The notes under the pieces were generated by a model. It searched no databases and was not told the DNA's origin. It worked only from the letters and a program-made list of their open reading frames with translations. Source: Kiritimatiellia bacterium (lineage in GTDB: Bacteria > Verrucomicrobiota > Kiritimatiellia > RFP12 > UBA1067). Taken from it: a stretch of 64,000 nucleotides of DNA. Both the position numbers and the translations under genes were made by a program. Shown piece by piece: positions 24,952 to 51,827 of this stretch; within the stretch, counting starts at the first letter, position 1; every line of letters starts with the position of its first letter. The stretch lies in assembly GCA_045535455.1 (NCBI GenBank), contig JAZSLQ010000253.1:906-64905 (forward strand), written 5' to 3'.

Positions 24952-26220
24952 ATGGCAAGAAGAAAAGGAAGTCTCCAGTTAGAGAAGAATGGGATATGGA
25001 CGGCACGGGTTCGCGTCGACGGCAGAATGGTCTGCCGCTCGACGGGGACGGCGCTGCGTTCCGAGGCGGAGGAGTCGCTCGCACGCCTCGTAATCATCGC
25101 GGAGTGCGGGCGCAGACGGACGCTCGAATGCTCTGCCCTCCTGAAGGCGTGGCCGCGCTACGAGGCGTCGGCGGTGGCAGCACGGCTTGCGCCCGCGTCC
25201 CGCAAGACGAAATACAGGGTGTGGCTTCATTTCTCAGTGTGGATGCACGAGACCCATCCGAATGTGCGCGAGCCGCAGGAAGTCACGCGCTCGATGGCCG
25301 AGGAGTACCTGACGTTTTTTCAGGGCGGTCATGCCCCCGTCACGTGCAATCTGCGCATCTGCTACCTCCGCGAGATGTTCCGCCTCATGCTCGGCGAGGA
25401 CGGCGCGGCGGAATCCAACCCCTGGGAGGGAGTTCGGCTCCGCGCAAGCGACGGCTATACGCGGCGAGAGCTTTCGCTGGACGAGGTGAGGCGGCTCATT
25501 TTCGTTTCCGAGGCCTGCGGACGCGAGTGGAGGATGCTCTTCTCGCTTGCCGTTTATACAGGCATGCGCCTTGGCGACTGCTGCTGCCTTACTTGGGAGG
25601 CAGTGAACCTCTCATCGTCGATAATCCAGATTGTCCCTCGCAAGACGCGCCGCTATCTTGCGGCACGCCCAGTCACCATACCGCTGCACCCGGAGCTCGC
25701 CGACATGCTTAGGAAGACGCCGCCAGAGTTGCGCAACGGCTTCGTCATGGATTCCATCGCCAAGGACTTCACTCAGCGCCGCTGGGTCGTGAGCCGCACG
25801 CTCGAGAGGATATTCGAAAAGGCGGGCATAGAGACGAGTGTTATGCTGGAAGGTCGCGAGCGGAGAACTCCGTCTGCGACGTTTCACTCACTTCGCCACA
25901 CCTTCGTCTCAATTGCCGTGAACGCCGGTGTTCCGCTCGCCACCGTCCAGTCAATCGTCGGTCATACATCGACTGCGATGACACGGCATTACTACCATCC
26001 AAGCGAAGTCGCCTTGCGGCAGGCGGTGAACGCAATCCCTCCAATCGGCTCTGGCGTCGCGAATTTGCCGCGCCCGCGACCGAGAGGAGCCCGCTTGGCA
26101 GCGCCCCCTGCGCCGACATTTTGCTCGCGGCTCAGGGAGCTCGAAAAGGCGAAGAGTCGAGGGCTCATAAGCGCGGACGAGTTCCTGTCGCTTCGGCAGA
26201 AAGTTCTCGCAGAGGCATAG
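24952..26220 (+). CDS. Tyrosine site-specific recombinase with SHOCT-like C-terminal tail
   Basis: 422 aa. Catalytic signature residues in YTGMRLGD (R), HSLRHTF (H-x-x-R), VGHTSTAMTRHYYH (H...Y). The C-terminal LRELEKAKSRGLISADEFLSLRQKVL resembles a SHOCT motif. Confidence 0.88.
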   Translation: MARRKGSLQLEKNGIWTARVRVDGRMVCRSTGTALRSEAEESLARLVIIAECGRRRTLECSALLKAWPRYEASAVAARLAPASRKTKYRVWLHFSVWMHETHPNVREPQEVTRSMAEEYLTFFQGGHAPVTCNLRICYLREMFRLMLGEDGAAESNPWEGVRLRASDGYTRRELSLDEVRRLIFVSEACGREWRMLFSLAVYTGMRLGDCCCLTWEAVNLSSSIIQIVPRKTRRYLAARPVTIPLHPELADMLRKTPPELRNGFVMDSIAKDFTQRRWVVSRTLERIFEKAGIETSVMLEGRERRTPSATFHSLRHTFVSIAVNAGVPLATVQSIVGHTSTAMTRHYYHPSEVALRQAVNAIPPIGSGVANLPRPRPRGARLAAPPAPTFCSRLRELEKAKSRGLISADEFLSLRQKVLAEA

Positions 26221-26262
26221 CCATTTGACGGCAGAAAGCGGATCTTTACTGCACGAGAAAAG

Positions 26263-26428
26263 ATATACCACTTAGTTAGCAAGTTCTTTCCTGCCAACAC
26301 CCCTGATTTTATGGGGTTTACTACACTTTTGCGCGCACGTGGAAAACGAAACGAGAGCGAAGATTTCGGCAAGATATGGGCAGTTTTAAATGTTTCTACT
26401 TGCCAGCGCCGCTAACTAAGTGGTATAT
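26263..26428. promoter_or_regulatory. Putative invertible promoter segment (inverton): 130 bp bounded by perfect 18-bp inverted repeats
   Basis: IR-L ATATACCACTTAGTTAGC at 26263-26280 and IR-R GCTAACTAAGTGGTATAT at 26411-26428 are exact reverse complements. The recombinase gene ends 43 bp upstream and the NusG-like gene starts 135 bp downstream. Confidence 0.6.
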
Positions 26429-26429
26429 T
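26400..26429 (+). promoter_or_regulatory. Promoter TTGCCA-N18-TATATT (TGG-extended), -35 inside the invertible segment and -10 inside IR-R; ON orientation toward the polysaccharide locus
   Basis: TTGCCA 26400-26405, TGG 26421-26423, TATATT 26424-26429. This is the same TTGNNN-N18-TGGTATAAT architecture as at 8934, 28155 and 1939. Confidence 0.5.
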
Positions 26430-26562
26430 ATACACTTGTAACCCACAATAGGTTATGTATGGAATCTACTCCTTACCGGCACCCACAGGATGGGCAGACG
26501 TGAATTACGGTGAGTATTTGACGGGCACGGAGTGCTTTCTTTAATCATTTTGGGCAAATGCA

Positions 26563-27048
26563 ATGAGTGAAAGTTGGTACATTGTTTGCACAAAGTCGCG
26601 GTCGGAGAAGAAGTTGCAGGCCATATTGCGGACATTGCATGTGCTTAATGTCATGCCGACGTATGTGAAAGTTCGCAAGGTGCAGCGCCGCACGGTAAAG
26701 ACGGAAATCCCGATCTTCCCCGGCTACCTCATGGCGCGGCTTAGCGCCGAAAAACGGCTCACCGTCATCAAGACCAACCTAACGACGGCCGTCTTGCCAC
26801 TGCAAAACGCGCGTGCCGTCCTGAGGCAACTTCATCAGCTCGTCAAGGCGGCGATGCAGACGGAGGAATTCCGCCTCGTGGTGCCGACGGTGGCTGGCGA
26901 CGCCGTGCGTATCGTAAACGGGCCAATGAAGGGGCTCGAAGGCAGGGTCAAGACCGTGGATGGCAAGACGCTTTTGACCGTGGGCGTCGAGGCGTTTGGC
27001 GGCGCAATCGAGGTGCAGGTTTCGCCGGAAGACTGTGTCGCTGCCTGA
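26563..27048 (+). CDS. NusG-family (UpxY/RfaH-like) transcription antiterminator
   Basis: 161 aa. NGN-like N-terminus WYIVCTKSRSEKK...IPIFPGYLMARL and KOW motif GDAVRIVNGPMKGLEGRVKTVDG. First gene of a long co-directional polysaccharide locus. Confidence 0.8.
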   Translation: MSESWYIVCTKSRSEKKLQAILRTLHVLNVMPTYVKVRKVQRRTVKTEIPIFPGYLMARLSAEKRLTVIKTNLTTAVLPLQNARAVLRQLHQLVKAAMQTEEFRLVVPTVAGDAVRIVNGPMKGLEGRVKTVDGKTLLTVGVEAFGGAIEVQVSPEDCVAA

Positions 27049-27071: not shown

Positions 27072-28007
27072 ATGGTCACTCAACTAAAGCTTCAGAACTT
27101 CAAGGTCGGCGAGCAGCGCACATTCTCCTTTGACAACAGGATTTCGTTTGTCGAAGGAGACGTCGGTGCTTCAAGGGCGCTTGCGATTGACGCGTTCCGG
27201 TTGCTCCTGATGGCCTCTCGAAGCGAAGACACCACGTCGTTCCCAAGCTCTTGGATTGCTGCGAGCGGCCCGACGCGGCTTTCCGTGTCCATTGCCAATT
27301 ACGACTTCTCGGAGCTCACCTATTCCGTCACCCTACGGCGTTTCGGCGGCGAGACGCAGATACTTGACGAGCAGCTCACCTCCGGGGAGAAGCAGATGCT
27401 GTCCCGCTTCGGGGGCTGGTATCACGCCGGCCCGCCGACTACCGACAAGAGGCGAATAGGCGACACTCGGCTCGCCTTTGCTGACGCGATTAGGTATCTG
27501 TCGAACAAGGACCCGGTACATGACATGAGGCGGGAGCTTCAGGACCTGTGGCTCGTCGCGCCAGACGCGTTTCGGATGGGAAGCGTCCTGAACGGCGATG
27601 TCGTCAATCCCAACGACGGCAGTTTTTCGCATCTCGCCACCTGCATCGCAGTCCAGGCCTATGCGAGAGAGTCGGTGCGGCGTTCGATGATTGACCATCT
27701 AAGGCGGCTTCAGTCGGCGGGGATAACTGGTTTCTCCGTAAGGGGCGATGCGGAAGGGAAGCTCGTGCTCATCGTCCACCACCGCAACGACCTTGATTCG
27801 AACGGGGTGCCGTTCGGGCGTCTCGACAACAGCGAGAAGATGCTTTTCCTCGCCGCGTTCGTCTGCGCGGTGAACGAGCATTCGCTCCCGCTTTCCGTCG
27901 TGTGGGACTCCCCGAGCAACTGGCTTGGCGGGCGTGGCGGCTCGGCGGTCGTCAAGATGCTCTGCCGCTCTTTCGTCCGTCGCGGCCAAATCGTCATGCT
28001 CTCGTAG
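27072..28007 (+). CDS. Degenerate ABC/SMC (RecF-like AAA_15/21-type) ATPase-fold protein, predicted catalytically inactive
   Basis: N-terminus LKLQNFKVGEQRTFSFDNRISFVEGDVGASRALAIDAF has the fold pattern, but Walker A is GDVGASRA (no GK[ST]). The signature/Walker B region LDNSEKMLFLAAF...LSVVWDSPSNWL lacks the D-E pair. Confidence 0.5.
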   Translation: MVTQLKLQNFKVGEQRTFSFDNRISFVEGDVGASRALAIDAFRLLLMASRSEDTTSFPSSWIAASGPTRLSVSIANYDFSELTYSVTLRRFGGETQILDEQLTSGEKQMLSRFGGWYHAGPPTTDKRRIGDTRLAFADAIRYLSNKDPVHDMRRELQDLWLVAPDAFRMGSVLNGDVVNPNDGSFSHLATCIAVQAYARESVRRSMIDHLRRLQSAGITGFSVRGDAEGKLVLIVHHRNDLDSNGVPFGRLDNSEKMLFLAAFVCAVNEHSLPLSVVWDSPSNWLGGRGGSAVVKMLCRSFVRRGQIVMLS

Positions 28008-29001: not shown

Positions 29002-30069
29002 ATGATAGAAGTATCTAGATTTGTAGCAACACTCAAGGAGTCGGGAGTTGATTTCTTCACCGGTGTGCCGGATTCGCTGCTGAAGAGTTTCTGCGCGTAT
29101 GTTACGGATAATTGCGGCGAGAACCACGTGATTGCCGCAAACGAGGGTGGGGCGGTTGGATTGGCCGCCGGGCATTACCTCGCAACAGGCAAACCTGCGC
29201 TCGTCTATATGCAGAACTCGGGACAGGGCAATGCGGTGAATCCGCTCTGCTCGCTCGCTGATCCGGATGTCTACTCCATTCCGATGGTGTTGTTGGTCGG
29301 ATGGCGCGGCGAGCCAGGCGTGAAGGACGAGCCGCAGCATGTCAAGCAGGGCAAGGTAACGGTTTCGCTCTTCGAGACGCTGGGCATTCCGACGGAGATT
29401 CTGCCTGACGATGAAATTGCCGCGCTTGAATTAACGAGGAAGATGGTTGAGAGGGCTAAGGCAGAATCCCGCCCTGTCGCGCTCATCGTCCGCAAGGGGC
29501 TCTTTGCAGAATACAAGCTCCAGAACAAGAAACCCGACATCTCGGCGCTTCCACGTGAGCAGGCGATTGAAGAGATATTAAAGTCGCTTCCTGAAGAAGC
29601 GGTTGTCGTTTCAACCACCGGCATGATCTCCCGCGAAGTCTACGAGACGCGCGAACGCCTCGGACAAGACCATTCGTGCGACTTCCTGACGGTTGGTTCG
29701 ATGGGCCACGCAATCATGATCGCGCTCGGAATCGCCAAGGCGCAGCCGAGCCGTCGAGTCTTATGTCTCGATGGTGACGGCGCAAGCATCATGCAAATGG
29801 GCAACATGGCAATTGCCGGACAGTCTGGCTGCGCGAACCTAACGCATATAGTCCTCAATAACGCGGCGCATGATTCCGTCGGCGGCCAGCCGACAGTTGG
29901 CGGATCAATCAATCTCTCAGAAATCGCGGCGTCATGTGGCTACAATCGCCCTGGGGCGCCAGTGTTCAAGGAAATCAAGGTCGCCAAAGGTGCCCGCAAG
30001 GATCTTGGCCGTCCGAAGGAGCCGCCGCAAGTCAATAAGAAGCTCTACATGGGAACGCTTTCGAAGTGA
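29002..30069 (+). CDS. aepY: Phosphonopyruvate decarboxylase (ThDP-dependent)
   Basis: 355 aa. N-terminus VDFFTGVPDSLLKSFCAYV and ThDP motif LDGDGASIMQMGNMA...IVLNNAAHDSVGGQ. Clustered with PEP mutase and AEP transaminase. Confidence 0.85.
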   Translation: MIEVSRFVATLKESGVDFFTGVPDSLLKSFCAYVTDNCGENHVIAANEGGAVGLAAGHYLATGKPALVYMQNSGQGNAVNPLCSLADPDVYSIPMVLLVGWRGEPGVKDEPQHVKQGKVTVSLFETLGIPTEILPDDEIAALELTRKMVERAKAESRPVALIVRKGLFAEYKLQNKKPDISALPREQAIEEILKSLPEEAVVVSTTGMISREVYETRERLGQDHSCDFLTVGSMGHAIMIALGIAKAQPSRRVLCLDGDGASIMQMGNMAIAGQSGCANLTHIVLNNAAHDSVGGQPTVGGSINLSEIAASCGYNRPGAPVFKEIKVAKGARKDLGRPKEPPQVNKKLYMGTLSK

Positions 30070-30770
30070 AAGAAATTGCGATATTGATGGCAGCAGGATT
30101 AGGAAGCCGCATGAGACCGCTAACTGACACAACGGCAAAGCCGCTCGTGGAAGTGAACGGCATCCCGCTGATTGAGACGGTTCTTGCGGCGCTGAAGAGA
30201 CGTGGGGTGGAAGAGATTTATATCGTTACCGGATATAAGGCGGAACAGTTCAAGTCACTAGCAGACAAGGATGGCGCGGTTCGCCTTATCCATAATTCAG
30301 AATATGCTACAAAGAACAATATTAATTCTATTGCCGTTGTTGCCGACAGGATGATGAATGCTGATTGTTTCATCTGCGAGGCTGATTTGTTTGTTGCCAA
30401 CGATGCGGTTCTTTGCCGTGACTTGTCGCGGTCTGGTTATTTCGGGAAGATGGTGAAGGGGCATTCCGACGATTGGGTGTTTGATACAGATTCAGCAGGC
30501 CGTGTAACGCGCGTCGGAAAAAATGGTGACGATTGCTTCAACATGGTTGGCGTCAGCTACTTCCAGGCAACGGATGCTGCGAAGATCGCGGTTGCCGTTC
30601 TAGAAGATGTCAAGAGGCCCGAGAATGCCCAGCTTTTCTGGGATGAAGTCGTTGATCGACTTGTGAAACAGAGGGAACTTGATTTAGTTGTTCACGAAGT
30701 CTCGACAGATGAGATTGTCGAATGTGACACTGTAGAAGATTTACAGATATTGGAGGCAAGGTTAAGATGA
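30066..30770 (+). CDS. LicC-like nucleotidyltransferase (candidate phosphonate cytidylyltransferase)
   Basis: 234 aa. NTP_transferase motif AILMAAGLGSRMRPLTDTTAKPLV. ATGA overlap with the upstream gene. Confidence 0.75.
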   Translation: MKEIAILMAAGLGSRMRPLTDTTAKPLVEVNGIPLIETVLAALKRRGVEEIYIVTGYKAEQFKSLADKDGAVRLIHNSEYATKNNINSIAVVADRMMNADCFICEADLFVANDAVLCRDLSRSGYFGKMVKGHSDDWVFDTDSAGRVTRVGKNGDDCFNMVGVSYFQATDAAKIAVAVLEDVKRPENAQLFWDEVVDRLVKQRELDLVVHEVSTDEIVECDTVEDLQILEARLR

Positions 30771-31888
30771 CGATAAAGAGAAACATTTTGCTTAACCCGG
30801 GCCCGGCGACAACGACAGATACAGTGAAGCTCGCCCAGGTTGTTCCCGATATTTGCCCACGCGAAAAGGACTTTGCCGGGTTGATGAAGGGCCTTCGCCG
30901 CGACCTTGTAAAAATTGTGCATGGCGATGACCGCTACACCAGCGTTCTCTTCTGTGGGTCTGGGACGCTAAACATGGACGTGTGCCTCAATTCCCTCCTC
31001 CCGTCAGGTAAGAAGATCCTTGTGGCAAACAACGGAGCCTATTCGTCTCGTGCCGTCGAGATATGCAAGGCATACGGGATGCCGCATATAAATTTATCGA
31101 TGCCGATTGAACAGCCGATTGATGCTGCGGCGGTAGAGAAGGCCCTTGTTGAGAATCCCGACGTTGCCGTTGTATATACGACGCACCATGAGACAGGTTC
31201 TGGCGTTCTCAATCCAATACGCGAAATTGGGGCGGCAGCGCATCGCCACGATTGCACATTTATTGTTGATACGACTTCTACCTATGCGATGCGCCCAATT
31301 AACATCATCGATGACAATGTCGACTTCTTGATGGCAAGCGCACAGAAGGGCTTGCAGTCCATGACAGGGCTGTCCTTCGTCGTTGGCCGCGAGGACAAAA
31401 TACGCGAATCGGCTGCATTCCCAAAGCGTTCATACTACTGTAACCTCTTTTTTCAGTATGACTATTTCGAGAAGACAGGTGAGATGCACTTCACGCCGCC
31501 GGTCCAGACGGTTTATGCTACGATCCAGGCGTTGAAAGAATATTTCGCAGAAGGGGAGGTCGCGAAGTGGGCACGCCACACTCGCGTGTTTGAGGCCATT
31601 CATAAAGGGCTTGAAGGCCTTGGCTTCCGAAATCTAATCAAACGCGAATATCAAAGCGGGCTTGTCGTGTCCGTCTGCTATCCCGACGATCCGAACTGGA
31701 ACTTCGAGAAGGTCCACGACTACTGCTACGAGAGGGGCTTCACGATCTATCCCGGCAAGGTCGGCTCCGCCAAGACGTTCCGCCTCTGTGCGCTGGGGCA
31801 GATCGACGAACAGGATATAACGGATTTCTTCAAGGTTTTCAAGACGGCTTTGGACGAATATGGAATCGAGGTCAGATACAATGGCTAA
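30767..31888 (+). CDS. phnW: 2-aminoethylphosphonate:pyruvate aminotransferase
   Basis: 373 aa. LLNPGPATTTDTVK N-terminus and the PLP lysine context SAQKGLQS, typical of PhnW/AepZ. Confidence 0.85.
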   Translation: MTIKRNILLNPGPATTTDTVKLAQVVPDICPREKDFAGLMKGLRRDLVKIVHGDDRYTSVLFCGSGTLNMDVCLNSLLPSGKKILVANNGAYSSRAVEICKAYGMPHINLSMPIEQPIDAAAVEKALVENPDVAVVYTTHHETGSGVLNPIREIGAAAHRHDCTFIVDTTSTYAMRPINIIDDNVDFLMASAQKGLQSMTGLSFVVGREDKIRESAAFPKRSYYCNLFFQYDYFEKTGEMHFTPPVQTVYATIQALKEYFAEGEVAKWARHTRVFEAIHKGLEGLGFRNLIKREYQSGLVVSVCYPDDPNWNFEKVHDYCYERGFTIYPGKVGSAKTFRLCALGQIDEQDITDFFKVFKTALDEYGIEVRYNG

Positions 31889-33185
31889 AAAGGTATATAC
31901 GTGTTTTTGCACGGCGGTGATTCACAAAGGGCACCGTAACATTATAAATGAGGCGCGGAAACTGGGTGAAGTGACAGTTGGCGTTCTCTCCGACGAGGCG
32001 ATGATCCGCTACAACCGCTTTCCGTCCTGTTCGCTGGAGGAACGGATTTCCGCCGCACGATCAATTGATGGCGTTGCCAATGTCGTTGTCCAGAAGGACA
32101 TGTTCTATGACGAGGTGATTGCGGAAGAGCGCCCCGACTACGTCATCCACGGCGACAACTGGTGCAGTCCGGAAGCACCCGAATACGCCATCCGTCAGAA
32201 TGTCGAGAAATGCCTTGCCGAATACGGCGGCAAGGTCGTCGATGTCCCCTATACGTTCGACCCAGAGATACAGAAGATAGACGAAATCGAACGCGAGCGT
32301 CTTGCAATGCCGGAGTTCCGCCGCAAGCGCCTGCGCCAGCTCATAAAGCTGTGTCCCATCGTCAAGACGATAGAGGCTCATTCGGGGCTAACGGGGCTTA
32401 TTGCTGAGAAGACGGTTGCCCGTCAGGAGGACGGACGCCTCGACCAGTTCGACGCGATGTGGGTCTCTTCGCTCTGCGATTCCACGGCGAAGGGCAAGCC
32501 GGACATCGAGCTTGTCGACATGTCGTCTCGGCTCCGTACCATTGATGATATCATGGAGGTTACGACAAAACCCATCATCCTTGACGGAGATACCGGTGGA
32601 TTGACTGAGCATTTCGTGTATAACGTCCGGACGCTCGAGCGCATTGGCGTTTCGGCCGTTATCATTGAAGACAAGTGCGGATTAAAGAAGAATTCGTTGT
32701 TTGGAACAGAGGTCAAGCAGACGCAGGATACGATAGAGAACTTCTGCGCGAAGATTGCCGCCGGAAAGGATGCGCTTCGCACGAAGGAATTCATGATCAT
32801 TGCACGTTGCGAGTCTCTGATTTTGGAGCAGGGGATGGACGATGCCTTGACGCGCTGCCACGCATACGTCAAGGCCGGTGCGGACGGCATCATGATCCAT
32901 TCGCGCAAGAAAGACCCTGCCGAGATACTGGAGTTTTGCGACAAGTTCCGTGCGGCCGATCCGACAACGCCAATCGTCGTCGTTCCGACTTCGTTCAACT
33001 CGGCTACGGAGAGCGAGCTTGCCGCGCACGGCGTCAACATCTGTATCTATGCGAACCATCTCACCCGCGCCGCATTCCCCGCTATGCAGTCAGTCGCGCA
33101 GGACTTGCTGAAATACCATCGGGCGCAGGAGGTCGATTCGCGGCTTATGCCTTTCAAGAAGATCATAACACTGATAGACGGTTGA
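31881..33185 (+). CDS. aepX: Cytidylyltransferase-like domain fused to phosphoenolpyruvate phosphomutase
   Basis: Start moved to MAKKVYTC (ATG 31881, 8-nt overlap). N-terminal HxGH-type motif VIHKGH. C-terminal PEP mutase signature IIEDKCGLKKNSL and FMIIARCES. Confidence 0.85.
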   Translation: MAKKVYTCFCTAVIHKGHRNIINEARKLGEVTVGVLSDEAMIRYNRFPSCSLEERISAARSIDGVANVVVQKDMFYDEVIAEERPDYVIHGDNWCSPEAPEYAIRQNVEKCLAEYGGKVVDVPYTFDPEIQKIDEIERERLAMPEFRRKRLRQLIKLCPIVKTIEAHSGLTGLIAEKTVARQEDGRLDQFDAMWVSSLCDSTAKGKPDIELVDMSSRLRTIDDIMEVTTKPIILDGDTGGLTEHFVYNVRTLERIGVSAVIIEDKCGLKKNSLFGTEVKQTQDTIENFCAKIAAGKDALRTKEFMIIARCESLILEQGMDDALTRCHAYVKAGADGIMIHSRKKDPAEILEFCDKFRAADPTTPIVVVPTSFNSATESELAAHGVNICIYANHLTRAAFPAMQSVAQDLLKYHRAQEVDSRLMPFKKIITLIDG

Positions 33186-33189
33186 ATCC

Positions 33190-35085
33190 ATGGAATATCT
33201 TGTAAAATTCTTCGCGTGGTTGATGGAATGGTGTCACTCGTGGTGCCCCAACTACTGGGCTGATATCGTCATCTTCACATTCCTTACCAAAGTTCTCCAA
33301 TTCCCGGTATCGCTTTGGTGCCAGGTGAATTCCCTCAAGATGGTTTCGCTCATGCCGGCGACGAACCGTATCAAGATGGAGCGTTACGGCGACAATGACG
33401 CAATTGGAGAAGAAACGGCGGCATTGTTTAAACGCGAGAAGTACCATCCGATGCTTTCACTTGTGCCGCTGGCGATTCAGATTGTCATTCTGATGGCATT
33501 CGTCAAGGTCATTTATGGAATTGGCGATAAGCTCACAATCCCAAACGCGGCGAAACCGCTTATCGCTTGTGTTCCGTGGACGGATGGTGGTCTTGCATGG
33601 TTCATGCCGCTTTTTGCAGGCGCGGCGGCGTGGCTCCTTGGCTATACACAGAATATTTTCAATCCGCTCCAACACGAGCAGACGCGGACGCAGCAGATCA
33701 TAACGAACGGTATCTCCATCTGCATCTCGCTCTTTCTCGGCTGTTTCGTCGCGGCTGGCGTCGGCCTCTATTGGGCGACAAGTAATTTGTTCTCCATCCT
33801 CGTGCAGCTCTGTGAGAACGTTGTCATTCCGCCAAAGAAACATGTGGACTATCATGCGCTTCGCCGCTCTCAGGCCGAGCTGAAGAAGTTTGAAGAGAGC
33901 ATCAAGAAGAAGGCAGTTGTGTCGCCAGAGGACCGGAAGCGAGAGAAGATGGACTACAAACGCTTTTTTCATGTTGCCAACAAGCACCTTGTATTCTATG
34001 CCGAGGGCGGTGGCTACTATAAATATTTTCAGAGTGTTGTGGAGTGGCTCCTTGCACATTCGAACGTGACGATCCATTATGTGACAAACGACCCGAAGGA
34101 TGGTGTCTTTGCGTTGGCTGAGAAGAATCCGCACATTCGTGCCTATTACATTGGACAGGTAAAGATTATTCCGCTCATGATGAAGATGGATGCTGACATG
34201 GTTGTGATGACGACGCCAGATTTGAACACATACCAATTGAAGCGTTCGTATGTGAAGAAAGATGTGGAATACGTGTATCTCGACCATGGTCCGACGAGTG
34301 TCCATATGTGCTATCGCAAGGGGGCGTTTGACCACTTTGACACCATTATGGCGAATGGCCCATTTCAGGTTGCCGAACATCGTGCGACCGAGAAACTTTA
34401 CGGATTGAAAGCGAAGAAGATGGTCGAATCGGGGTATCCGATTTTGGATCTTCTGCTGTCAGTGCCGGCCTCCAAGAGGACGGAATCTGGTAGTCGCCGC
34501 ATAATGATTGCGCCGTCCTATCAGGCTGACTGCATTCCGGACTCGTGCCTTGATGCACTCGTTGATACTATAACATCTGCGAATCTGGGTTGCACGGTCG
34601 TATTCCGTCCGCATCCGCAGTATGTCAGGCGCTTCCCAGCGAAGATGCAAGCCATTGTGGAACGTTACAAAGACCGCGCGGATGTCGTGTTGGAGGACGA
34701 CTTCTCGAAGCCCTCGACGATGGATCAATCGGACGTCCTTGTGACTGACTGGTCGGGAATTGCCTACGAATACGCTTTTAAAACGAAACGTCCGGTCGTA
34801 TTCATCAACACGCCGATGAAGGTCATAAATTCAGAATGGAAGAAGATTGGTCTTGAGCCGACGGATATTTCCTTCCGTGACGAGGTTGGAGTGTCTGTTC
34901 CGCTTGACGATATTCTGGCGGCGGGTCGTGCTGTCGCCGACATGTTGGCAGATCCCGGTAAGTTCGCCGAAAAGATTGAGTCGCTTCTGCAGACACAATT
35001 CTACAATCCGGGACATGCGGGAGAAGTTGTTGGAAAGTATATTCTTGAAACACTCATTAACAAGAAAAAAGGAATAATGAAATGA
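33190..35085 (+). CDS. YidC/Oxa1-like membrane domain fused to a TagF-type (CDP-glycerol glycerophosphotransferase family) domain
   Basis: 631 aa. N-terminal part has YidC-like motifs (IFTFLTKVLQFPVSL..., GVGLYWATSNLFSILVQ). C-terminal part has the TagB/F-like motif SDVLVTDWSGIAYEYAFKTKRPVVF. Confidence 0.65.
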   Translation: MEYLVKFFAWLMEWCHSWCPNYWADIVIFTFLTKVLQFPVSLWCQVNSLKMVSLMPATNRIKMERYGDNDAIGEETAALFKREKYHPMLSLVPLAIQIVILMAFVKVIYGIGDKLTIPNAAKPLIACVPWTDGGLAWFMPLFAGAAAWLLGYTQNIFNPLQHEQTRTQQIITNGISICISLFLGCFVAAGVGLYWATSNLFSILVQLCENVVIPPKKHVDYHALRRSQAELKKFEESIKKKAVVSPEDRKREKMDYKRFFHVANKHLVFYAEGGGYYKYFQSVVEWLLAHSNVTIHYVTNDPKDGVFALAEKNPHIRAYYIGQVKIIPLMMKMDADMVVMTTPDLNTYQLKRSYVKKDVEYVYLDHGPTSVHMCYRKGAFDHFDTIMANGPFQVAEHRATEKLYGLKAKKMVESGYPILDLLLSVPASKRTESGSRRIMIAPSYQADCIPDSCLDALVDTITSANLGCTVVFRPHPQYVRRFPAKMQAIVERYKDRADVVLEDDFSKPSTMDQSDVLVTDWSGIAYEYAFKTKRPVVFINTPMKVINSEWKKIGLEPTDISFRDEVGVSVPLDDILAAGRAVADMLADPGKFAEKIESLLQTQFYNPGHAGEVVGKYILETLINKKKGIMK

Positions 35086-35273
35086 TGTTTGCATACGTTG
35101 ATCCGTCTGTCATGTCGTACACCGTCCAGGCGATTGCGGGAGTCGCTATTGCGCTTGGCGTTGTATTCGGTGTCGTCTGGCGGAAGGTCAAGAAGGGGGC
35201 GAACAAAGCTCTCGGTCGAGATGAGAATTCAGGTAAGGAAGTTGAGGAAGATATCGTTGCCAAAGAGGATTAA
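35082..35273 (+). CDS. Small single-pass membrane protein (63 aa)
   Basis: ATGA overlap with the upstream stop. One TM helix (VQAIAGVAIALGVVFGVVW) and a charged tail. Confidence 0.45.
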   Translation: MMFAYVDPSVMSYTVQAIAGVAIALGVVFGVVWRKVKKGANKALGRDENSGKEVEEDIVAKED

Positions 35274-35276
35274 GAG

Positions 35277-36944
35277 ATGGACAGGTTGAAGGCAAGATTT
35301 TCACAATTGCATTTTGTTCAGGCGGTGCTTTGCGCATTGGCCTTTTCGTTCTTCTTTACACTCGCATTGCCGTTGCAAAGTTATATTAGCAATAGGTTGA
35401 TGTTTGAATATGACCTTGGAGATTTGCTCTCGGAAGTTATTTTGATATTTTTTGTTAGTTTTATTGTGCTAACAATGTTATTGCTTGTGGCGGAGTACAT
35501 TTTTGGAAGGTTCCCGATTTTGCTAATGTTAATTGCAGGAATTTGTGGATATCTTGAGGTTGGAATCTTATCTATATGGCTGCCGCAATTAAATGGAGAA
35601 CTGTGGCTGTTTGCGAGACCGTCAATTCGCCTTTATTTAGATGTGATTGTTTTTATATTGCTTTTGGTTTTGGGGATATGGTATCGGAAAAGATTGTATG
35701 GATGGATGACATGGGGAGCCATAGGTTTCATTATTATGAGTATAGCGTTCATTATGGATACGAGTAGCGCAAGGTGTCAGAAAGTGATAAGGACAGCATT
35801 TGATGACGGATTTTGTCCTGCGTATGACATGGTGCGAAGTGTAGTATTCTCAACAAACCGCAATGTTATAGTGATAAGCATTGATTCTGCCCCAGCAGAT
35901 CTTACAGCGGAAATCATAGAGGAAGATAAAAACCTTAAAAGTCAGTTCCCTGGTTTTATAGAGTTTAAAAACAACATAGGTATGCATGATTGTACAACGC
36001 GAGGGACGCCAGCATTTGTAACTGGTAATTATCTTGAAAAAGAGACTTCGCTTCAAGAGAACGAAGCCTCATTCTGGGGCGATAACTCAGTTGTAAAGAG
36101 TTATCTTGATGCCGGGTACAATATGTTTGTTCGAATGGGTGCGGGGAAGAGCTACACAAACAGGAGAACTTTTGTATATTCTACCCCTAGCCACGATGAA
36201 TCTAAATGGCATCTGCTTCGGTATACAAAAGACACCCCATACATAACCCTTCTGGATGTACTTTGTTTTAGAATTGTTCCTTATCGTCGTAAGTTATGTG
36301 TTATAAACAAGGCAATTTGGCGAGGTGAAGCGATTAAGGGTAATGGTTTAAATATGGTTTATCGGGAGTGGCAGGTATATCCGATTTTGAAGAGTGCAGA
36401 AATTCTTAAAGAGCCAAAGGGAAAATGTTTTTGTTTGTTGCACACGGAGGGGGTTCATGTGCCAATCATAAAAGGTCGTCATGGTGAGGATTTTGTAGGG
36501 GATTCAAATTCTCGTGAGGCAATCAAAGCGGCATTACATTACATTCTTGATCAGTTTGCGGACCTGATGCGCACTTTTAGAGAAAGAGGAATATATGATA
36601 ATTCAATGATTGTATTTTCAACGGATCATGGTATTGTAAGAACGCCCAAATCTGCACTGCTGTGGGTTAAGCCATTTAATGACCGGGGCGAATTTTATTC
36701 CAGTGGCATTCCTACGAGTCACAGCAAGATATCTAATCTTTTGAAGAAATCTGTATCGGGTGATTTGTCGCGGGAGCAGATTATAGATGCCCTATCGCAA
36801 AAGGAAAGGAAACTTCGTATCAAGCAGCCATCGCCGGAGAAATGGTGGTATTTTGGACGAGTGATTGATACATACGATATTATATATGACGAGTTTGGAA
36901 ATGAAACCAAGAGGGAGAATCTTGGTGAGTTTAAGATAAACTAA
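35277..36944 (+). CDS. LtaS/EptA-like membrane sulfatase-family transferase
   Basis: 555 aa with about 5 N-terminal TM helices, then an alkaline-phosphatase-superfamily region (VIVISIDSAPAD, HTEGVHVPI, VFSTDHG). Low GC. Confidence 0.65.
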   Translation: MDRLKARFSQLHFVQAVLCALAFSFFFTLALPLQSYISNRLMFEYDLGDLLSEVILIFFVSFIVLTMLLLVAEYIFGRFPILLMLIAGICGYLEVGILSIWLPQLNGELWLFARPSIRLYLDVIVFILLLVLGIWYRKRLYGWMTWGAIGFIIMSIAFIMDTSSARCQKVIRTAFDDGFCPAYDMVRSVVFSTNRNVIVISIDSAPADLTAEIIEEDKNLKSQFPGFIEFKNNIGMHDCTTRGTPAFVTGNYLEKETSLQENEASFWGDNSVVKSYLDAGYNMFVRMGAGKSYTNRRTFVYSTPSHDESKWHLLRYTKDTPYITLLDVLCFRIVPYRRKLCVINKAIWRGEAIKGNGLNMVYREWQVYPILKSAEILKEPKGKCFCLLHTEGVHVPIIKGRHGEDFVGDSNSREAIKAALHYILDQFADLMRTFRERGIYDNSMIVFSTDHGIVRTPKSALLWVKPFNDRGEFYSSGIPTSHSKISNLLKKSVSGDLSREQIIDALSQKERKLRIKQPSPEKWWYFGRVIDTYDIIYDEFGNETKRENLGEFKIN

Positions 36945-37012
36945 ATAGTTTGCTTTGCAGACAGAAGTGCTTGCTTGTAGACATTTATTGATGCAATATA
37001 TGTAGGGTAGAA

Positions 37013-37138
37013 ATGTCACCCAGCCGTCGAATATTCTTGAACATTGTTGCTACGTACGGGCGGAGTTTGTATGCGCTTGTGTGTGGGCTGTTCATTGGTC
37101 GGTGGGTGTTGGTAGCGTTAGGCGACGTAGCAGGTTGA
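37013..37138 (+). pseudogene. N-terminal remnant of a second Wzx-type flippase gene
   Basis: MSPSRRILLNIVATYGRSLYALVCGLFIGRWVLVALGDVAG* aligns by eye with the N-terminus of the intact flippase at 39795 (TRIILNAVATYGRSVIAVILGLFSVRWIFMGIG). Only 41 codons, with higher GC than the surroundings. Confidence 0.6.
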
Positions 37139-37181
37139 AACTCATGATGGTCATCAACTCATAAGGTGAGGAAAATTTATA

Positions 37182-38039
37182 ATGCTTGGGAGAATTCGAT
37201 CAAAATTGGTTAGCGCATTTCGCAGGTTTTCATTAATGTTTAAAGTGCGCGTTCCTGTTTATGTGCCCGTATTGAAGAATGATCTTCTATCTGGCCGAAA
37301 AGCACTTATCACAGGAGGTACAGGGGGAATTGGCTATGCAATAGCAAAGGCCTTTCTTGAATGTGGCGCGATAGTTTGCATAACAGGACGAAGTGAGGAG
37401 CGGGTTAATTGTGCGATAAGGCTTTTGCAAGAGGATTTTACTATAGTTGGTGATGTGAAACGAAGGATCTATGGTATAGCGATGGACAATCTTGATGTCA
37501 TGGCATTCCCTGAAAAAGTTAAGACAGTTTGTGAGATGATGCAAGGGTTAGATATTTTAGTCAATAATGCAGGTGTGGTAGGAAGCGATGGCTCGGAGTC
37601 TAGTTATGACTTGGTTTTAGCAACCAATACGAAAGCGCCATATTTTTTATCAAATATAATAGCTAAGGACTGGATTTCAAAAGGAATTAAGGGGAATATA
37701 TTAAATGTTTGTTCGTCATCTAGCCTTAGGCCAGGGCAGAATCCATACATTATATCCAAATGGGGACTTCGTTCTATAACACTTGGCTTGGCTAGGTCAT
37801 TTGCAGCAAAAGGTATTGTTGTCAACGGGATTGCACCGGGACCGACAGATACTGAATCCATGAGAAAACTTTCTGGCATAGGCATAGATTGGACCAAGAA
37901 TCCGACAGGGCGCTTAGTGACAAAGCAAGAAATTGCAAATTTGGCGGTTGTTCTTGTCAGCGACTTGAGCCGAATGGTTATAGGTGATATTCTATATGTA
38001 TCTGGAGGTGCAGGAGTTGTCACCTTTGATGATGTTTAA
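37182..38039 (+). CDS. Short-chain dehydrogenase/reductase (SDR)
   Basis: 285 aa. TGGTGGIGYAIA cofactor motif and YIISK (YxxxK) catalytic motif. Confidence 0.85.
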   Translation: MLGRIRSKLVSAFRRFSLMFKVRVPVYVPVLKNDLLSGRKALITGGTGGIGYAIAKAFLECGAIVCITGRSEERVNCAIRLLQEDFTIVGDVKRRIYGIAMDNLDVMAFPEKVKTVCEMMQGLDILVNNAGVVGSDGSESSYDLVLATNTKAPYFLSNIIAKDWISKGIKGNILNVCSSSSLRPGQNPYIISKWGLRSITLGLARSFAAKGIVVNGIAPGPTDTESMRKLSGIGIDWTKNPTGRLVTKQEIANLAVVLVSDLSRMVIGDILYVSGGAGVVTFDDV

Positions 38040-38052
38040 GGAGATCCCCATC

Positions 38053-39798
38053 ATGCCCCACTATTCAGATGAAAAGAATGTACAGATTACGCTTTCACTT
38101 CTAAAAGCACATGGAATAAAGCGTATTATCGCAAATCCAGGATCGTCTAATTTTTCATTTGTAGGTAGCGTTCAGTCAGACCCCTACTTTTCGGTCTATT
38201 CTGGAGTGGATGAACGACACTCGGCGTATATGGCATGTGGAATGGCTGCGGAAAGCGGTGAGCCTGTTGTCCTTAACTGTACTGGTGCAACTTCAAGCCG
38301 TGATTATATGCCGGCGCTGACAGAGGCTTATTATCGAAAATTGCCGATTCTTGTCATCACGTCTTCACAAGTGAATTCCCATTTGGGACAACTTTGGGCA
38401 CAAATGACTGATCGCCTGCACCCCCCTTCGGATGTCGTCAAGTTGACTGTTGACTGCCCTGTGGTCAGAACTATTCAAGATGAACAAGATTGTGCACGCT
38501 TTATCAATCAGGCGATTTTGGAATTAAAACATCGTGGTGGTGGCCCTGCGCACATCAACCTTCAGATAAGCCACTGCACGAGTTTTTCAACGACCGATTT
38601 GCCCAAAGTTCGGAAGATAGATCGTGTGACGGTCTGTCAGGCTGACTGGCCTAATTTACCAAGGAACGCAAAGATACTGATATGGATTGGCACCCACAAG
38701 TGTTTTTCGCATGATGAAACCGCCGCAATGGCTGATTTTGTTACTAATCACAATGCTGTGGTTCTGTGTGATCATACGAGTTCGTATACGGGAAAGGGAG
38801 CGGTTACGTCGGCGATTGTTTGTTCGCAAGGAGTTCGCAATGTTCCTAAGTTCCATAAATTGACGCCTGATTTGATTATACATATTGGAGAAGTATCAGG
38901 AGACGCTCCAACCAATGGATATCTTGCAAGGCTTGCTCCCGTTTGGAGAATTAGTGAAGATGGGGAGATACGAGATCGTTTAGGTAAACTTGAATTTGTT
39001 TTTGAGATGCCAGAGAAGTTCTTTTTTGAAAAATATAAAGAGCAAGAACCTTGTGAAGGTTCATATTTCCAATCTTGGCGGGATGCGGTTGAATCATTAA
39101 GGAATTCAGTTCCAGAATTACCTTTCTCAAATCCATGGATGGCGCAGCGCTTGTGCGGTTCTCTGCCAAGAAACAGCACAATTCATTTCTCAATTCTTAA
39201 TAGCTTGAGAAGTTGGAATTACTTTGATAAAGATTTTTCTATTTCATCAATGTGCAATGTCGGTGGATTTGGAATTGACGGATGTACTTCCGCATTGGTT
39301 GGCGCATCACTCATTAATTCGAGGCGAATATACTTTTTAGTTACTGGCGATTTAGCATTTTTCTATGATTTGAATGCTCTTGGGAATCATCATATAGGAA
39401 AGAATGTCAGAATCTTGCTGATAAACAATGGTGCAGGAGGAGAGTTTCATATGTATAATAATGCTACTTCTCAGTTTGGTGAACATACAAGTGACTATAT
39501 CTCGGCCGGTGGGCACTTCGGTAATAAGTCGCGGACTTTTGTAAAACACATAGCAGAAGATCTTGGGTTTAAGTATATGACTGCATCCACAAAGAAAGAG
39601 TTCGATGAGTCCATGGAAGAGTTTCTTTCTTTAGATCTGGATAAATCGATAATATTAGAATGTTTTACAAAATTGGAAGACGAGTCTAAGGCATTGTTGG
39701 TTCTGAATACGTTAGATGAGGATGCCCAGCGCAAGGCGAAATTGTCACGGTATGTACCTACTCCTATCAAGAGTGTTGTTAAAAAGATATTGGGATGA
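38053..39798 (+). CDS. Thiamine-diphosphate-dependent enzyme (acetolactate synthase/MenD-like fold)
   Basis: Start moved to MPHYSDEKNV (ATG 38053, SD AAGGAG). N-terminal ThDP-pyrimidine domain pattern IIANPGSSNFSF and C-terminal GDLAFFYDLNAL...LLINNGAGGEF. Confidence 0.75.
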   Translation: MPHYSDEKNVQITLSLLKAHGIKRIIANPGSSNFSFVGSVQSDPYFSVYSGVDERHSAYMACGMAAESGEPVVLNCTGATSSRDYMPALTEAYYRKLPILVITSSQVNSHLGQLWAQMTDRLHPPSDVVKLTVDCPVVRTIQDEQDCARFINQAILELKHRGGGPAHINLQISHCTSFSTTDLPKVRKIDRVTVCQADWPNLPRNAKILIWIGTHKCFSHDETAAMADFVTNHNAVVLCDHTSSYTGKGAVTSAIVCSQGVRNVPKFHKLTPDLIIHIGEVSGDAPTNGYLARLAPVWRISEDGEIRDRLGKLEFVFEMPEKFFFEKYKEQEPCEGSYFQSWRDAVESLRNSVPELPFSNPWMAQRLCGSLPRNSTIHFSILNSLRSWNYFDKDFSISSMCNVGGFGIDGCTSALVGASLINSRRIYFLVTGDLAFFYDLNALGNHHIGKNVRILLINNGAGGEFHMYNNATSQFGEHTSDYISAGGHFGNKSRTFVKHIAEDLGFKYMTASTKKEFDESMEEFLSLDLDKSIILECFTKLEDESKALLVLNTLDEDAQRKAKLSRYVPTPIKSVVKKILG

Positions 39799-41378
39799 CG
39801 GATAAAACAAGGATAATTCTAAATGCCGTTGCGACATATGGCCGCTCTGTTATTGCGGTCATATTGGGCCTATTTAGTGTTCGGTGGATATTTATGGGAA
39901 TAGGTCAGGTTGATTGGGGGTTATATGGAGTTGTTGGAAGTTTGATTGTATTTATCACGTTTCTCAATACAACAATGGCAGGAGCCGTTTCTAGATTCTA
40001 TGCCTATTCTATTGGTTATGGAAAAACTGTCGCAAAGGAAATTGGGGATGCGGACATTTGCAGGTGGTTTAACACGGCTGTGACGATTCATTCAGCCCTT
40101 CCTATAATGCTTGTGTTGGTTGGATATCCTATCGGTGTTTATGCTATTAATAATTGGTTGGTAATCCCTGCCGAACGAACAATTGCGTGTCTTTGGGTTT
40201 TTAGGCTATCATTAATCTCGGCATTTGTAAGCATGATTTCTGTTCCATATATTGCAATGTTTCAGGCACACCAATTGATTTGGGAAGTGTCCATAATAGG
40301 AATCGTTCAAAGCTTCGTTTCGTTTGCATTTGCATATTCAATCTCTTTCGTTCCCAATGATAAGTTGATTTACTACGCTGGCTACATGTCGACAGTGACT
40401 ATCTTCTTTTCGGTTGCTCAGATTGTATGGGCATATGTGCGGTTTGATATGTGCCGAATAAGAAAAACATATTTATTTGATAAGAGTCGGCTAAGATCTT
40501 TTTTTACCTTTGCAGGGGCAAAGGTGTTTGGTGCGATATGCGTCATAGCTCGAACACAAGGTGGGGCACTATTGTTGAATATATTCTTTGGACCTCAGAT
40601 AAATGCGGCATATTCACTTTCAACGCAAGTCTCGGGGCATACGGCGGCACTATCTCAAGCATTGGTGGGCGCGTTGCAACCTGCAGTTGCTACGCGTGAG
40701 GGGGCTCAAAATCGAACAGGCATGATGCGACTTGCCGAATCCGCCTGTAGGATTTGTGTCGTTCTGGTCTTAGTTTTTGCGGTGCCGCTGATGGTTGAGA
40801 TTGATTGGGTTTTGAAGACTTGGTTGAATGATCCCCCCCAGTACGCTGCGGTTTTCTGTTCAAGCATGTTGATCATGCTTTTGTTTGACAAGTTGTCTGT
40901 TGGCTATATGCTTGCGGCGAATGCGTATGGAAAGAGAATAGTAGTTTATGAAATAACAAACGGTATCATTTTGGTAAGCGCAATCCCAATCTCATATTTC
41001 CTATTCAAGTATGGATTGCCGCCATATTGGTTGCCGTTAATCTTATGTGCGACCATGTTGCTATATGCTGTAGCAAGGGTTAACTTTTGTAGATGGCAGC
41101 TGAATGTGTCAGTTCGAAAGTGGTTGGAGTCAGTTGTTATTCCTGTTTGCATTCTGTCTTTCCTTGCAATTGTTCTTGGAATTTTTGTTTCAAGACAGGT
41201 GTCCCCGTCGTTTCTGCGAGTTTGCCTTGTTAGTCTTCTGACCGGTTTATTGATAATTGTGGGTGGAGTGTGGGGCGTTTTTAAGAGCGATGAGCGTGCG
41301 GCATTATTCGGTATTTTGAGGAGGCTTCCTTGCAGATTTTACCGAAATGGAGCAGCAAGGAATGGGCATGTCGAATGA
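39795..41378 (+). CDS. wzx: Wzx-type polysaccharide/oligosaccharide flippase
   Basis: 527 aa, polytopic membrane protein (12+ hydrophobic segments). ATGA overlap with the upstream gene, in a polysaccharide locus. Confidence 0.7.
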   Translation: MTDKTRIILNAVATYGRSVIAVILGLFSVRWIFMGIGQVDWGLYGVVGSLIVFITFLNTTMAGAVSRFYAYSIGYGKTVAKEIGDADICRWFNTAVTIHSALPIMLVLVGYPIGVYAINNWLVIPAERTIACLWVFRLSLISAFVSMISVPYIAMFQAHQLIWEVSIIGIVQSFVSFAFAYSISFVPNDKLIYYAGYMSTVTIFFSVAQIVWAYVRFDMCRIRKTYLFDKSRLRSFFTFAGAKVFGAICVIARTQGGALLLNIFFGPQINAAYSLSTQVSGHTAALSQALVGALQPAVATREGAQNRTGMMRLAESACRICVVLVLVFAVPLMVEIDWVLKTWLNDPPQYAAVFCSSMLIMLLFDKLSVGYMLAANAYGKRIVVYEITNGIILVSAIPISYFLFKYGLPPYWLPLILCATMLLYAVARVNFCRWQLNVSVRKWLESVVIPVCILSFLAIVLGIFVSRQVSPSFLRVCLVSLLTGLLIIVGGVWGVFKSDERAALFGILRRLPCRFYRNGAARNGHVE

Positions 41379-41393
41379 ATAATTCATATCTGT

Positions 41394-42500: not shown

Positions 42501-42588
42501 TATGTCCGATGTAAGGGGCACAGATCATGATGTGAGAGCCAGTCAATTGGGTTTGCAAATACGATTCTAAATAGGCAAGAGGTCTAAG

Positions 42589-48646: not shown

Positions 48647-48655
48647 AGGCTGCCT

Positions 48656-49792: not shown

Positions 49793-49841
49793 TATTTTCA
49801 AATGGTTTGAGTTAAAGATTATGGTAAAGAAGGGGAACTAA

Positions 49842-51824: not shown

Positions 51825-51827
51825 TTT

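Follow-up and report, generated by a model that had tools for sequence, protein, structure and literature searches.

A 148-bp invertible segment that very probably switches a polysaccharide operon headed by a NusG paralogue on and off in a Kiritimatiellia bacterium

The stretch of DNA analysed here, 64,000 nucleotides (nt) in length and referred to below as the window, comes from a Kiritimatiellia bacterium (assembly GCA_045535455.1, contig JAZSLQ010000253.1, positions 906 to 64,905) and holds, in this order, a gene for a tyrosine recombinase, a short segment bracketed by a left and a right inverted repeat (IR-L and IR-R), a conserved leader, a gene for a NusG paralogue, a gene for a 311-residue protein and a long run of polysaccharide and phosphonate genes (Table 1). 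The segment measures 148 bp between the 9-bp cores of its repeats and is very probably a genetic ON/OFF switch for a surface sugar coat, because related Kiritimatiellia of gut and rumen carry it in both orientations. In more mechanistic terms we hold with considerable confidence that it is an inverton which turns the promoter of the polysaccharide operon led by the NusG paralogue on and off.

The two repeat arms, ATATACCACTTAGTTAGC and GCTAACTAAGTGGTATAT, are 100% complementary over 18 bp each and lie 130 nt apart, just as a preliminary description made from the letters of the window had claimed, and none of 100 dinucleotide-preserving shuffles (0/100) gave a match to this pair. It is furthermore the sole perfect inverted repeat of at least 14 nt within 600 bp across the 64 kb, and the 18-mer has no further copy in the window when up to three mismatches are allowed. 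A scan of 185,579 reference genomes for the 18-mer returned one match, unrelated and located upstream of dnaN in a Pseudomonadales metagenome-assembled genome (MAG), and a scan of JGI metagenome contigs returned none, for which reason relatives of the locus were reached by way of proteins: contigs with close and distant relatives of three cassette proteins were gathered from the public ENA, JGI and Logan metagenome assemblies. Three of the lineages obtained recur below, namely the window lineage (recombinase at least 97% identical and the same perfect 18-bp repeats), the P0013 lineage (68% recombinase identity, with one identical recombinase protein on nine contigs from nine samples, plus contig L025) and the P0162 lineage (about 54% recombinase identity, ten samples, with a perfect 19-bp repeat, ATATAGCACATTATTAGCA).

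Aligning IR-L with the reverse complement of IR-R for 16 loci revealed a repeat pair of 7-19 bp in all related loci of the clade. The core, ATATACCAC in IR-L and GTGGTATAT in IR-R, is unchanged in relatives with a recombinase identity of 80% or more and the inner 9 nt are variable; in the P0013 lineage the two ends share 9 bp only (ATATAGCAA), in the clade of about 50% recombinase identity the stretch shared from end to end comes down to 7 bp, and in both the inversion junctions fall inside the shared bases. The 18-bp repeat is real, but the functional repeat is the core of 7-9 bp and not the full 18 bp. The repeats are, as the preliminary description had asked of related genomes, conserved around the promoter, the core being kept down to about 50% recombinase identity, and its sequence varies with the recombinase lineage (ATATACCAC, ATATAGCAC, ATATAGCAA, ATATATCAA, TCTATCATA and CTACCAT). 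The spacing from core to core is nearly constant, 147-150 bp in all lineages of at least 54% identity and 134-136 bp in the clade of about 50%, although the interior of the segment diverges rapidly (window versus L024, 92/149 identical), and this points to a geometric constraint on synapsis, for instance one of looping or phasing.

In all lineages the core is the reverse complement of TGnTAnnn, that is of an extended -10 element minus its last one or two bases, and in the window ATATACCAC is the reverse complement of TGnTATAT(T); the flipped segment therefore carries the -35 hexamer alone. The base just outside IR-R completes TATAT-T in all lineages of at least 54% identity, with TAGACT or TAGGCT in the distant clade, and the base outside IR-L gives TATAT-C in these lineages of at least 54% identity, except for the P0162 lineage among them, where it gives TATAT-G. 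In the window TTGCCA is followed after an 18-nt spacer by TATATT with TG upstream, which matches 10 of the 12 positions and is the best sigma-70-like site of the region in a promoter scan. Every ON copy places TTGNNN (TTGCCA, TTGTCA, TTGTCT, TTGACT, TTGATT or TTGCTG) 17-18 nt from the right -10 despite the fast divergence of the remaining segment, and with identical criteria the scan finds one site in the window and none, on either strand, in the inverted contig L107. At the level of sequence the segment thus contains a promoter part that faces the gene in one orientation only.

These observations bear out the preliminary description in its account of the hexamers and their spacing, in its view that the window is in the ON state, with TTGCCA set 18 nt from TATATT, and in its remark that the TTGGCA at the left end has a 24-nt spacer. 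They lend less support to two of its further claims. The architecture was said to recur at four other places, and the extended -10 does recur, with five TGGTATAAT sites elsewhere in the window, but TTGNNN at an 18-nt spacing accompanies only two of the five (8955 and 28176). Leftward firing after inversion is in turn doubtful, since the -10 in question would read TATATC. Extended -10 elements of the form TGNTATAWT are in general enriched in the window (12 sites versus 1.9 expected), and 10 of these 12 lie on the + strand.

The strongest evidence for inversion comes from the metagenome relatives, since a flipped segment between collinear flanks is found in 13 of about 41 contigs, distributed over four lineages; short inverted repeats bracket the segment, and both orientations occur naturally across samples with their junctions at the repeats. 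Within the window lineage the window itself and L118 are ON and L002 and L107 are inverted. The L107 segment is identical to that of the window at 140/148 positions when reverse-complemented and at 79/148 as is, the corresponding values for L002 are 129/150 and 75/150, and the flanks of both are 185-198/200 identical to those of the window; L118 begins within the segment and its right junction is the ON junction of the window. The P0013 lineage comprises four ON contigs (L013, L015, L017 and L025) and six OFF contigs (L014, L016 and L018-L021), with segments 147-148/148 identical after inversion, left flanks 100/100 identical and right flanks that agree over all available bases. In the P0162 lineage five contigs are ON and four OFF, with segments 144-147/148 identical after inversion, and in the clade of about 50% three are ON and one is OFF, L029 being inverted relative to L031 (108/135 versus 82/135). 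The inversion that the preliminary description had proposed is thereby supported by inverted copies between unchanged flanks in L002, L107 and three further lineages.

Assembly error should be unable to yield these inversions, because the k-mers of the assemblers concerned (k141 contigs, SPAdes and JGI assemblies) greatly exceed the 7-19 bp of the repeats in length. Five contigs end inside the switch (L006, L007, L017, L018 and L019) and, as mentioned, L118 starts there; such breaks fit with mixed orientations within one sample, but are suggestive only. The tenth P0162 contig, L117, is rearranged. Its right side, from the -35 half of the segment through IR-R and the leader to the NusG gene, is retained as in an ON copy, and unrelated sequence stands where IR-L, the other half of the segment and the recombinase gene would be expected; the contig may represent an allele locked ON in nature.

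Taken together, the features suggest a mechanism in which the recombinase would recombine the two inverted 9-bp cores and thereby flip the 148 bp between them. The right border would always keep the -10 (TGGTATAT plus T) and the left border a crippled copy of it (TGGTATAT plus C). In the orientation of the window the promoter would be assembled by the placing of TTGCCA 18 nt from TATATT, whereas in the inverted orientation the -35 would lie about 150 bp away and face the recombinase gene, leaving no complete promoter toward the operon, nor indeed in either direction, as the left -10 lacks the last T. Transcription in the ON state would cross the leader with its hairpin and invariant CGGAGTG and then reach the gene for the NusG paralogue, and this protein, probably recruited in the leader, would protect RNA polymerase against termination along the whole length of the sugar operon.

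Table 1. Features of the switch region and its surroundings, in window coordinates
Feature	Position	Strand	Remarks
Tyrosine recombinase gene, presumed invertase	24952..26220	+	422 aa; Pfam Phage_integrase
ACTGCACGA motif	26248..26256	+	lies 6 nt beyond IR-L; candidate site, accessory or arm-type, for the recombinase
IR-L	26263..26280	+	18 bp; conserved crossover core ATATACCAC at 26263-26271
Interior of the invertible segment	26281..26410	.	130 bp; 148 bp when measured between the 9-bp cores
Hairpin CCCC-tgattttat-GGGG, then TTT	26300..26319	+	segment end far from the -35; read from the sequence
-35 hexamer TTGCCA	26400..26405	+	borne by the mobile segment
IR-R	26411..26428	+	18 bp; core GTGGTATAT at 26420-26428
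Extended -10 TGGTATATT	26421..26429	+	IR-R core plus one fixed T outside
5' leader	26430..26562	+	conserved, about 135 nt; invariant CGGAGTG(C) (CGGAGTGC) at 26528-26535, preceded by a covarying hairpin
NusG paralogue gene, UpxY-like	26563..27048	+	161 aa, NGN and KOW; Pfam NusG, KOW
Third cassette gene	27072..28007	+	311 aa; SMC/Rad50-head-like fold, degenerate ATPase motifs
Polysaccharide and phosphonate genes	29002..64000	+	presumed regulated cargo; annotated enzymes

The presumed invertase is clearly a tyrosine recombinase, since PF00589 matches residues 174-351 with E = 5e-24 and 85 bits against a cut-off of 27, and the catalytic set R-K-H-R-H/W-Y is complete, with R206, K231, H312, R315, H338 and Y347/Y348 invariant in 15 relatives of 45-92% identity. 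Weak matches are furthermore seen to Phage_int_SAM_4 in the core-binding domain and to SHOCT at the C-terminus. The cut-offs of the known subfamilies are missed by a wide margin (XerC 56 bits versus 335, XerD 51 versus 330, integron integrase 33 versus 265) and the NCBIfam search returned no model of the FimB/FimE type; the protein belongs to a separate clade. In the AlphaFold model (mean predicted local distance difference test score, pLDDT, 77) an N-terminal three-stranded sheet with a helix is followed by a helical core-binding domain, the catalytic domain and two C-terminal helices matching SHOCT, and in fold the protein comes nearest to XerA, Brujita Int and full-length lambda Int. The extra N-terminal domain together with the ACTGCACGA motifs suggests arm-type binding as in lambda Int. 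The motif, of which there are two copies in the whole window, is found 6-9 nt outside IR-L in most lineages studied, and in the clade of about 50% it occurs outside IR-R too, along with a TGCAGT just inside IR-L. At the segment end far from the -35 lies the hairpin listed in Table 1, which could possibly act as a terminator of read-through from the recombinase gene; L003, L005, L024 and L013 have a CCCC(G)..(C)GGGG hairpin equivalent to it, and so does the P0162 lineage, there on the opposite strand.

The recombinase gene indeed adjoins IR-L as had been claimed, the gap being 42 nt and not 43 bp. Its relatives number more than 1,800, those with a source name being Kiritimatiellia or Kiritimatiellae MAGs, and exact-protein look-ups of the recombinase and the NusG paralogue of the window gave no match. 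Down to about 50% recombinase identity, the relatives examined retain the order of recombinase, switch, leader and NusG paralogue, usually with a homologue of the 311-residue protein next in line. At 48% identity or below, the relatives adjoin housekeeping genes (phosphofructokinase, rpoD, mannitol dehydrogenase and the like), and simple scans found neither repeat nor NusG gene beside them; the notion that the whole family is switch-associated is thus rejected, and only one clade of it can be regarded as such. Nor is the switch universal among close recombinases, as follows from L008-L012 and L023, where the recombinase is 89% identical, the intergenic region is a different one with a TGGTACAAT promoter and no recognisable repeat, and an asparagine-synthase-like gene takes the place of the NusG cassette; the five contigs L008-L012, from five samples, have identical downstream sequence and a single orientation.

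Two further arrangements were observed among the relatives. Among L103-L106 (about 71% recombinase identity, 311-residue protein 64% identical) the recombinase gene of L103 and L105 lies on the strand opposite to that in L104 and L106; identity is 92% in this gene and 99.5% in the flanks, a PDDEXK_3 gene is present and the NusG gene lost in L104 and L106, and the gene borders are marked by a repeat of about 65 bp ending in TTCCGTGTATTCCGTGTGCTCCGTGGTTAA, which is not present in the window. In L028 (recombinase 68% identical) positions 1446-1546 hold a different candidate switch, in which perfect 16-bp repeats, ATATTATAATATGTGG and CCACATATTATAATAT, lie 69 nt apart and enclose a whole TTGACA-18-TAGACT promoter with TG in front; this is a single contig, and no NusG gene was found downstream of the candidate switch.

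The leader between IR-R and the NusG-like open reading frame (ORF), which begins 134 nt past the repeat, is conserved in all lineages. CGGAGTG is invariant across lineages and is always found 4-5 nt past a hairpin and 12-60 nt ahead of the start codon, and the hairpin stems change yet stay complementary (GTCAAGT/ACTTGAC, GTCGAGT/ACTCGAC, GTCAGA/TCTGAC and TGCAAA/TTTGCA). Hairpins are predicted in the leader of every lineage, RNAalifold proposes 17 pairs of which four have compensatory changes, and Rfam holds no known RNA family in 26000-29200. We hypothesize that the leader may provide a pause or recruitment site, similar to ops, for the NusG paralogue. A terminator reading of the leader, based on the hairpin GGCAC-GGA-GTGCU and its U-run, was considered and rejected, since this hairpin is missing in the clade of about 50% although CGGAGTG is kept; what is conserved is accordingly the sequence and not the hairpin.

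The gene for the NusG paralogue is the first of the polysaccharide gene cluster and follows the switch in loci across lineages of at least 50% recombinase identity. A third copy of GTGGTATAT in L022 and L024 was considered as a second right-hand site, but turned out to be the codons for the N-terminal WYI of the paralogue. The next gene encodes a 311-residue protein for which no Pfam (E <=0.1) or NCBIfam family was found and of which only 18 relatives were detected, the one with a source name being from a Kiritimatiellae MAG; the protein is confined to this lineage. Its AlphaFold model (mean pLDDT 86) has the heads of Rad50, SMC, RecN and PtuA as top Foldseek matches with E ~1e-10, but to judge from the translated sequence and the consensus it has degenerate forms of Walker A, Walker B and the signature motif (GDVGASRA, VVWDSP and LDNSEK), and it may consequently be a pseudo-ATPase. 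The gene accompanies that of the NusG paralogue in L002-L004, L022, L024, L030, L033, L102, L103 and L108-L117. The idea that it is the equivalent of UpxZ by homology finds no support, the protein having no family and a fold of the SMC/Rad50-head type.

Several observations nonetheless weigh against a promoter switch as described. The two orientations come from different samples, and in the lineages of 80-92% recombinase identity only the ON orientation is seen (10 contigs), with repeats that are degenerate outside the core. The link between the recombinase and the inversion consists of adjacency, co-conservation and co-variation of core and recombinase, and a trans-acting invertase could possibly be responsible instead. 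Both the start site of transcription and the ON/OFF effect rest on consensus matching, and the OFF state may be leaky, as extended -10 promoters can act without a -35. The NusG paralogue appears UpxY-like only below the cut-off of that family, since UpxY (NF033644) is its best NCBIfam model with 78.2 bits over residues 5-158 against a cut-off of 100; the NusG/UpxY-like gene that had been claimed to follow IR-R thus stands as regards its position and its best model, but not as regards family membership. Finally, a low-GC gap of about 1 kb (28008-29001) separates the cassette from the phosphonate genes and holds an ORF of the DUF6922 family (28155-28508) as well as a strong promoter-like site, TTGAAT-18-TGGTATAAT, at 28155-28184. 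Transcription of the sugar genes may accordingly also start apart from the switch, whose control may not extend over all 36 kb, so that the claim of more than 36 kb of same-strand polysaccharide genes is upheld for strand and functions and limited in reach by this second site.

A rival proposal accepts the inversion as real but not as a switch of the operon: the fixed extended -10 at IR-R would drive transcription in either orientation of the segment, and the flip would tune something else, such as the fate of the recombinase mRNA or antisense transcription, or be near neutral. The inversion does leave TGGTATATT unchanged, no -35 is recognisable at three or more of the other TGGTATAAT sites of the window, and the recombinase gene reads into the segment, so that orientation alters its 3' end. 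It is however difficult to see from this proposal why a TTG at 17-18 nt is kept in every ON copy across lineages while the rest of the segment drifts; the -10s of the switch are moreover non-consensus (TATATT, TAGACT and TAGGCT) and hence expected to need a -35, and in L107, which is OFF, the scan accepts no promoter. We therefore regard this proposal as improbable, albeit as the most serious competitor of the promoter switch. The possibility that the recombinase serves a mobile polysaccharide island as its integrase, with the repeats as att-like or terminal remnants and the inversions as by-products, stems from the position of family members of 48% identity or less beside phosphofructokinase, rpoD and mannitol dehydrogenase genes, as is usual for integrases, from the lambda-Int-like three-domain build of the enzyme, from the variable genes upstream of the cassette among relatives, and from the GC content, which is about 0.62 in 1-12 kb and drops to 0.39-0.50 in 35-53 kb, within the cargo. 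Two inverted sites 148 bp apart around a half-promoter, with a geometry kept within 3 bp across lineages, are in poor agreement with such a function, both orientations recur in many samples, and neither a direct-repeat att pair nor an empty site was seen, which makes this explanation very improbable.

Least credible of all, to the point of being nearly negligible, is that the repeats arose by chance or through faulty assembly, or are the terminal inverted repeats of a miniature transposable element. With its 166 bp and a perfect 18-bp inverted repeat at either end, the unit does look superficially like such an element, but it is single-copy in the window, the 18-mer has just the one unrelated match beside dnaN among the reference genomes, and lineages with repeats of differing sequence and length have it in the same place relative to promoter, leader and genes; as for an artefact, assembly with k=141 cannot create inversions between 9-bp repeats. 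The promoter switch hence remains the explanation that we prefer.

The systems closest in function and layout are the Bacteroides capsule switches together with fimS of E. coli. The capsule switches (B. fragilis PSA-PSH and B. thetaiotaomicron CPS) are alike in having a repeat-flanked promoter directly before the gene for a locus-specific NusG paralogue, with which a long polysaccharide operon begins, and the gut and rumen habitat is the same, the phylum being however different (Kiritimatiellota versus Bacteroidota). The PSB locus of B. fragilis reportedly has aminoethylphosphonate genes in the capsule locus, as does the cargo of the window. The promoter of the window is, in contrast, not of the Bacteroides type, but resembles sigma-70 promoters (TTGNNN-17/18-TGnTATATT) and is split, with the -10 within the crossover core. 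A dedicated adjacent tyrosine recombinase is found where B. fragilis uses the global serine invertase Mpi, the repeats are lineage-specific and unrelated to the shared Bacteroides consensus, and the second gene of the operon encodes the SMC-head-like protein of 311 residues and not UpxZ. The Bacteroides leader contains a hairpin and a short conserved element, opsX of about 40 bp (PMC11685472, PMC12632263), and the leader of the window resembles this layout of a pause hairpin plus a non-template-DNA element (PMC11685472). RfaH with ops, and LoaP, are likewise NGN and KOW proteins, which are encoded with long surface-polysaccharide or secondary-metabolite operons or act on them, and which are recruited at a short leader element (PMC11685472, PMC7819879). 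They are however uncoupled from DNA inversion and CGGAGTG(C) differs from ops, GGCGGTAGNNTG; the NCBIfam scores of the window paralogue for LoaP (47 bits), RfaH (43 bits) and NusG (41 bits) are furthermore all lower than that for UpxY.

The likeness to fimS lies in the 9-bp repeat, the tyrosine recombinase upstream, the unequal outer half-sites, the sigma-70 promoter and the output in a surface structure. In fimS, which serves the type-1 fimbriae of E. coli and is acted upon by FimB and FimE, 9-bp repeats enclose 314 bp with the whole promoter inside, a gene for a tyrosine recombinase directly precedes the switch and is read toward it, the half-sites outside the repeats differ, and inversion orients a sigma-70 promoter for ON/OFF control of a surface structure. 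The 148-bp segment of the window is unlike it in carrying the -35 only, one recombinase is found instead of two, and this is about twice the size of FimB and FimE, adding a beta-sheet domain at the N-terminus and a SHOCT-like tail at the C-terminus, the similarity being only at the general family level. In B. thetaiotaomicron, phase-variable S-layer/lipoprotein loci have a tyrosine recombinase gene beside a short promoter segment flanked by imperfect 17-nt palindromes, and several such paralogous loci exist, with orientation shown by PCR and sequencing (bioRxiv 10.1101/521070). These differ from the window by their lipoprotein/OmpA-like cargo without a NusG paralogue, by a 301-bp segment with the whole promoter and by belonging to Bacteroidota. 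Akkermansia is a member of Verrucomicrobia, the former phylum of Kiritimatiellota. Many intergenic invertons, 5.55 per genome as determined with PhaseFinder, are given for Akkermansia in a preprint that cites Jiang et al. 2019 (bioRxiv 10.1101/2023.03.11.532203). They are presented as a census of repeats with read support, and the text consulted describes no recombinase-NusG cassette or split promoter and includes no Kiritimatiellia.

Phase-variable capsules are central to the evasion of phages and immunity by gut Bacteroides, and Kiritimatiellota is a largely uncultured phylum of the PVC (Planctomycetes-Verrucomicrobia-Chlamydiae) group that is common in rumen and hindgut. None of the literature searched connects Kiritimatiell* with invertible promoters, with invertons or with phase variation. 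Switching of the Bacteroides and fimS types is known, and what sets the present case apart is the different recombinase family, the sigma-70 promoter logic and the lack of UpxZ. Its occurrence in Kiritimatiellota, with other components, suggests that this regulatory logic is a solution which recurs in organisms of the animal gut, and the split design, in which the crossover core is also the -10, is compact. We would propose, tentatively and with slightly more reason for doubt than for belief, that gut Kiritimatiellia hold an undescribed family of phase-variation modules, each composed of a lambda-Int-like three-domain tyrosine invertase with its own 7-9-bp core doubling as extended -10 of a split promoter, a structured leader, an UpxY-like NusG paralogue and a degenerate SMC-head protein, and placed at the head of interchangeable polysaccharide loci. 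If this is true, the sharing of one site by recombination and sigma factor would mean that polymerase and recombinase could compete, coupling the switching rate to promoter use, and the combination of invertase, NusG paralogue and capsule operon would have arisen independently of the Bacteroidota of the same habitat or been exchanged with them. The lineage-distinct pairs of recombinase and core are furthermore candidate orthogonal switches for synthetic biology, and it should also be mentioned, as a warning, that polysaccharide loci in Kiritimatiellota MAGs may represent the one state or the other, or be interrupted at the switch, as a result of assembly.

All long ORFs from 27072 to the end of the window are on the + strand, and the cargo downstream of the cassette, presumed to be under its control, has a phosphonate part, with phosphonopyruvate decarboxylase, aminoethylphosphonate (AEP) transaminase and phosphoenolpyruvate (PEP) mutase, and a sugar part, with glycerophosphotransferase, pyruvyl transferase, UDP-GlcNAc 2-epimerase, GT1, GT2 and GT4 glycosyltransferases, a DegT aminotransferase, an acyltransferase and a heparinase II/III-like protein. 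A different set of sugar genes follows the cassette in L102, an NCBI Kiritimatiellae MAG, which would fit with the cassette being a regulatory module placed before interchangeable polysaccharide loci. The enrichment of extended -10 elements and the fall in GC content along the window suggest that the polysaccharide cargo was horizontally acquired. Within this cargo a GC-rich motif, TTAACGCAGAGGCGC(AGAG..), occurs in five copies versus 0.1 expected (55098-55584, 56427-56612 and 59674-59688). Copies of it form inverted pairs 110 and 421 nt apart, apparently within long ORFs (an ADH/GFO fusion and the heparinase II/III-like gene), and the 110 nt enclosed by one such pair code for a conserved portion of the heparinase N-domain; the copies could be REP-like insertions or intragenic invertons.

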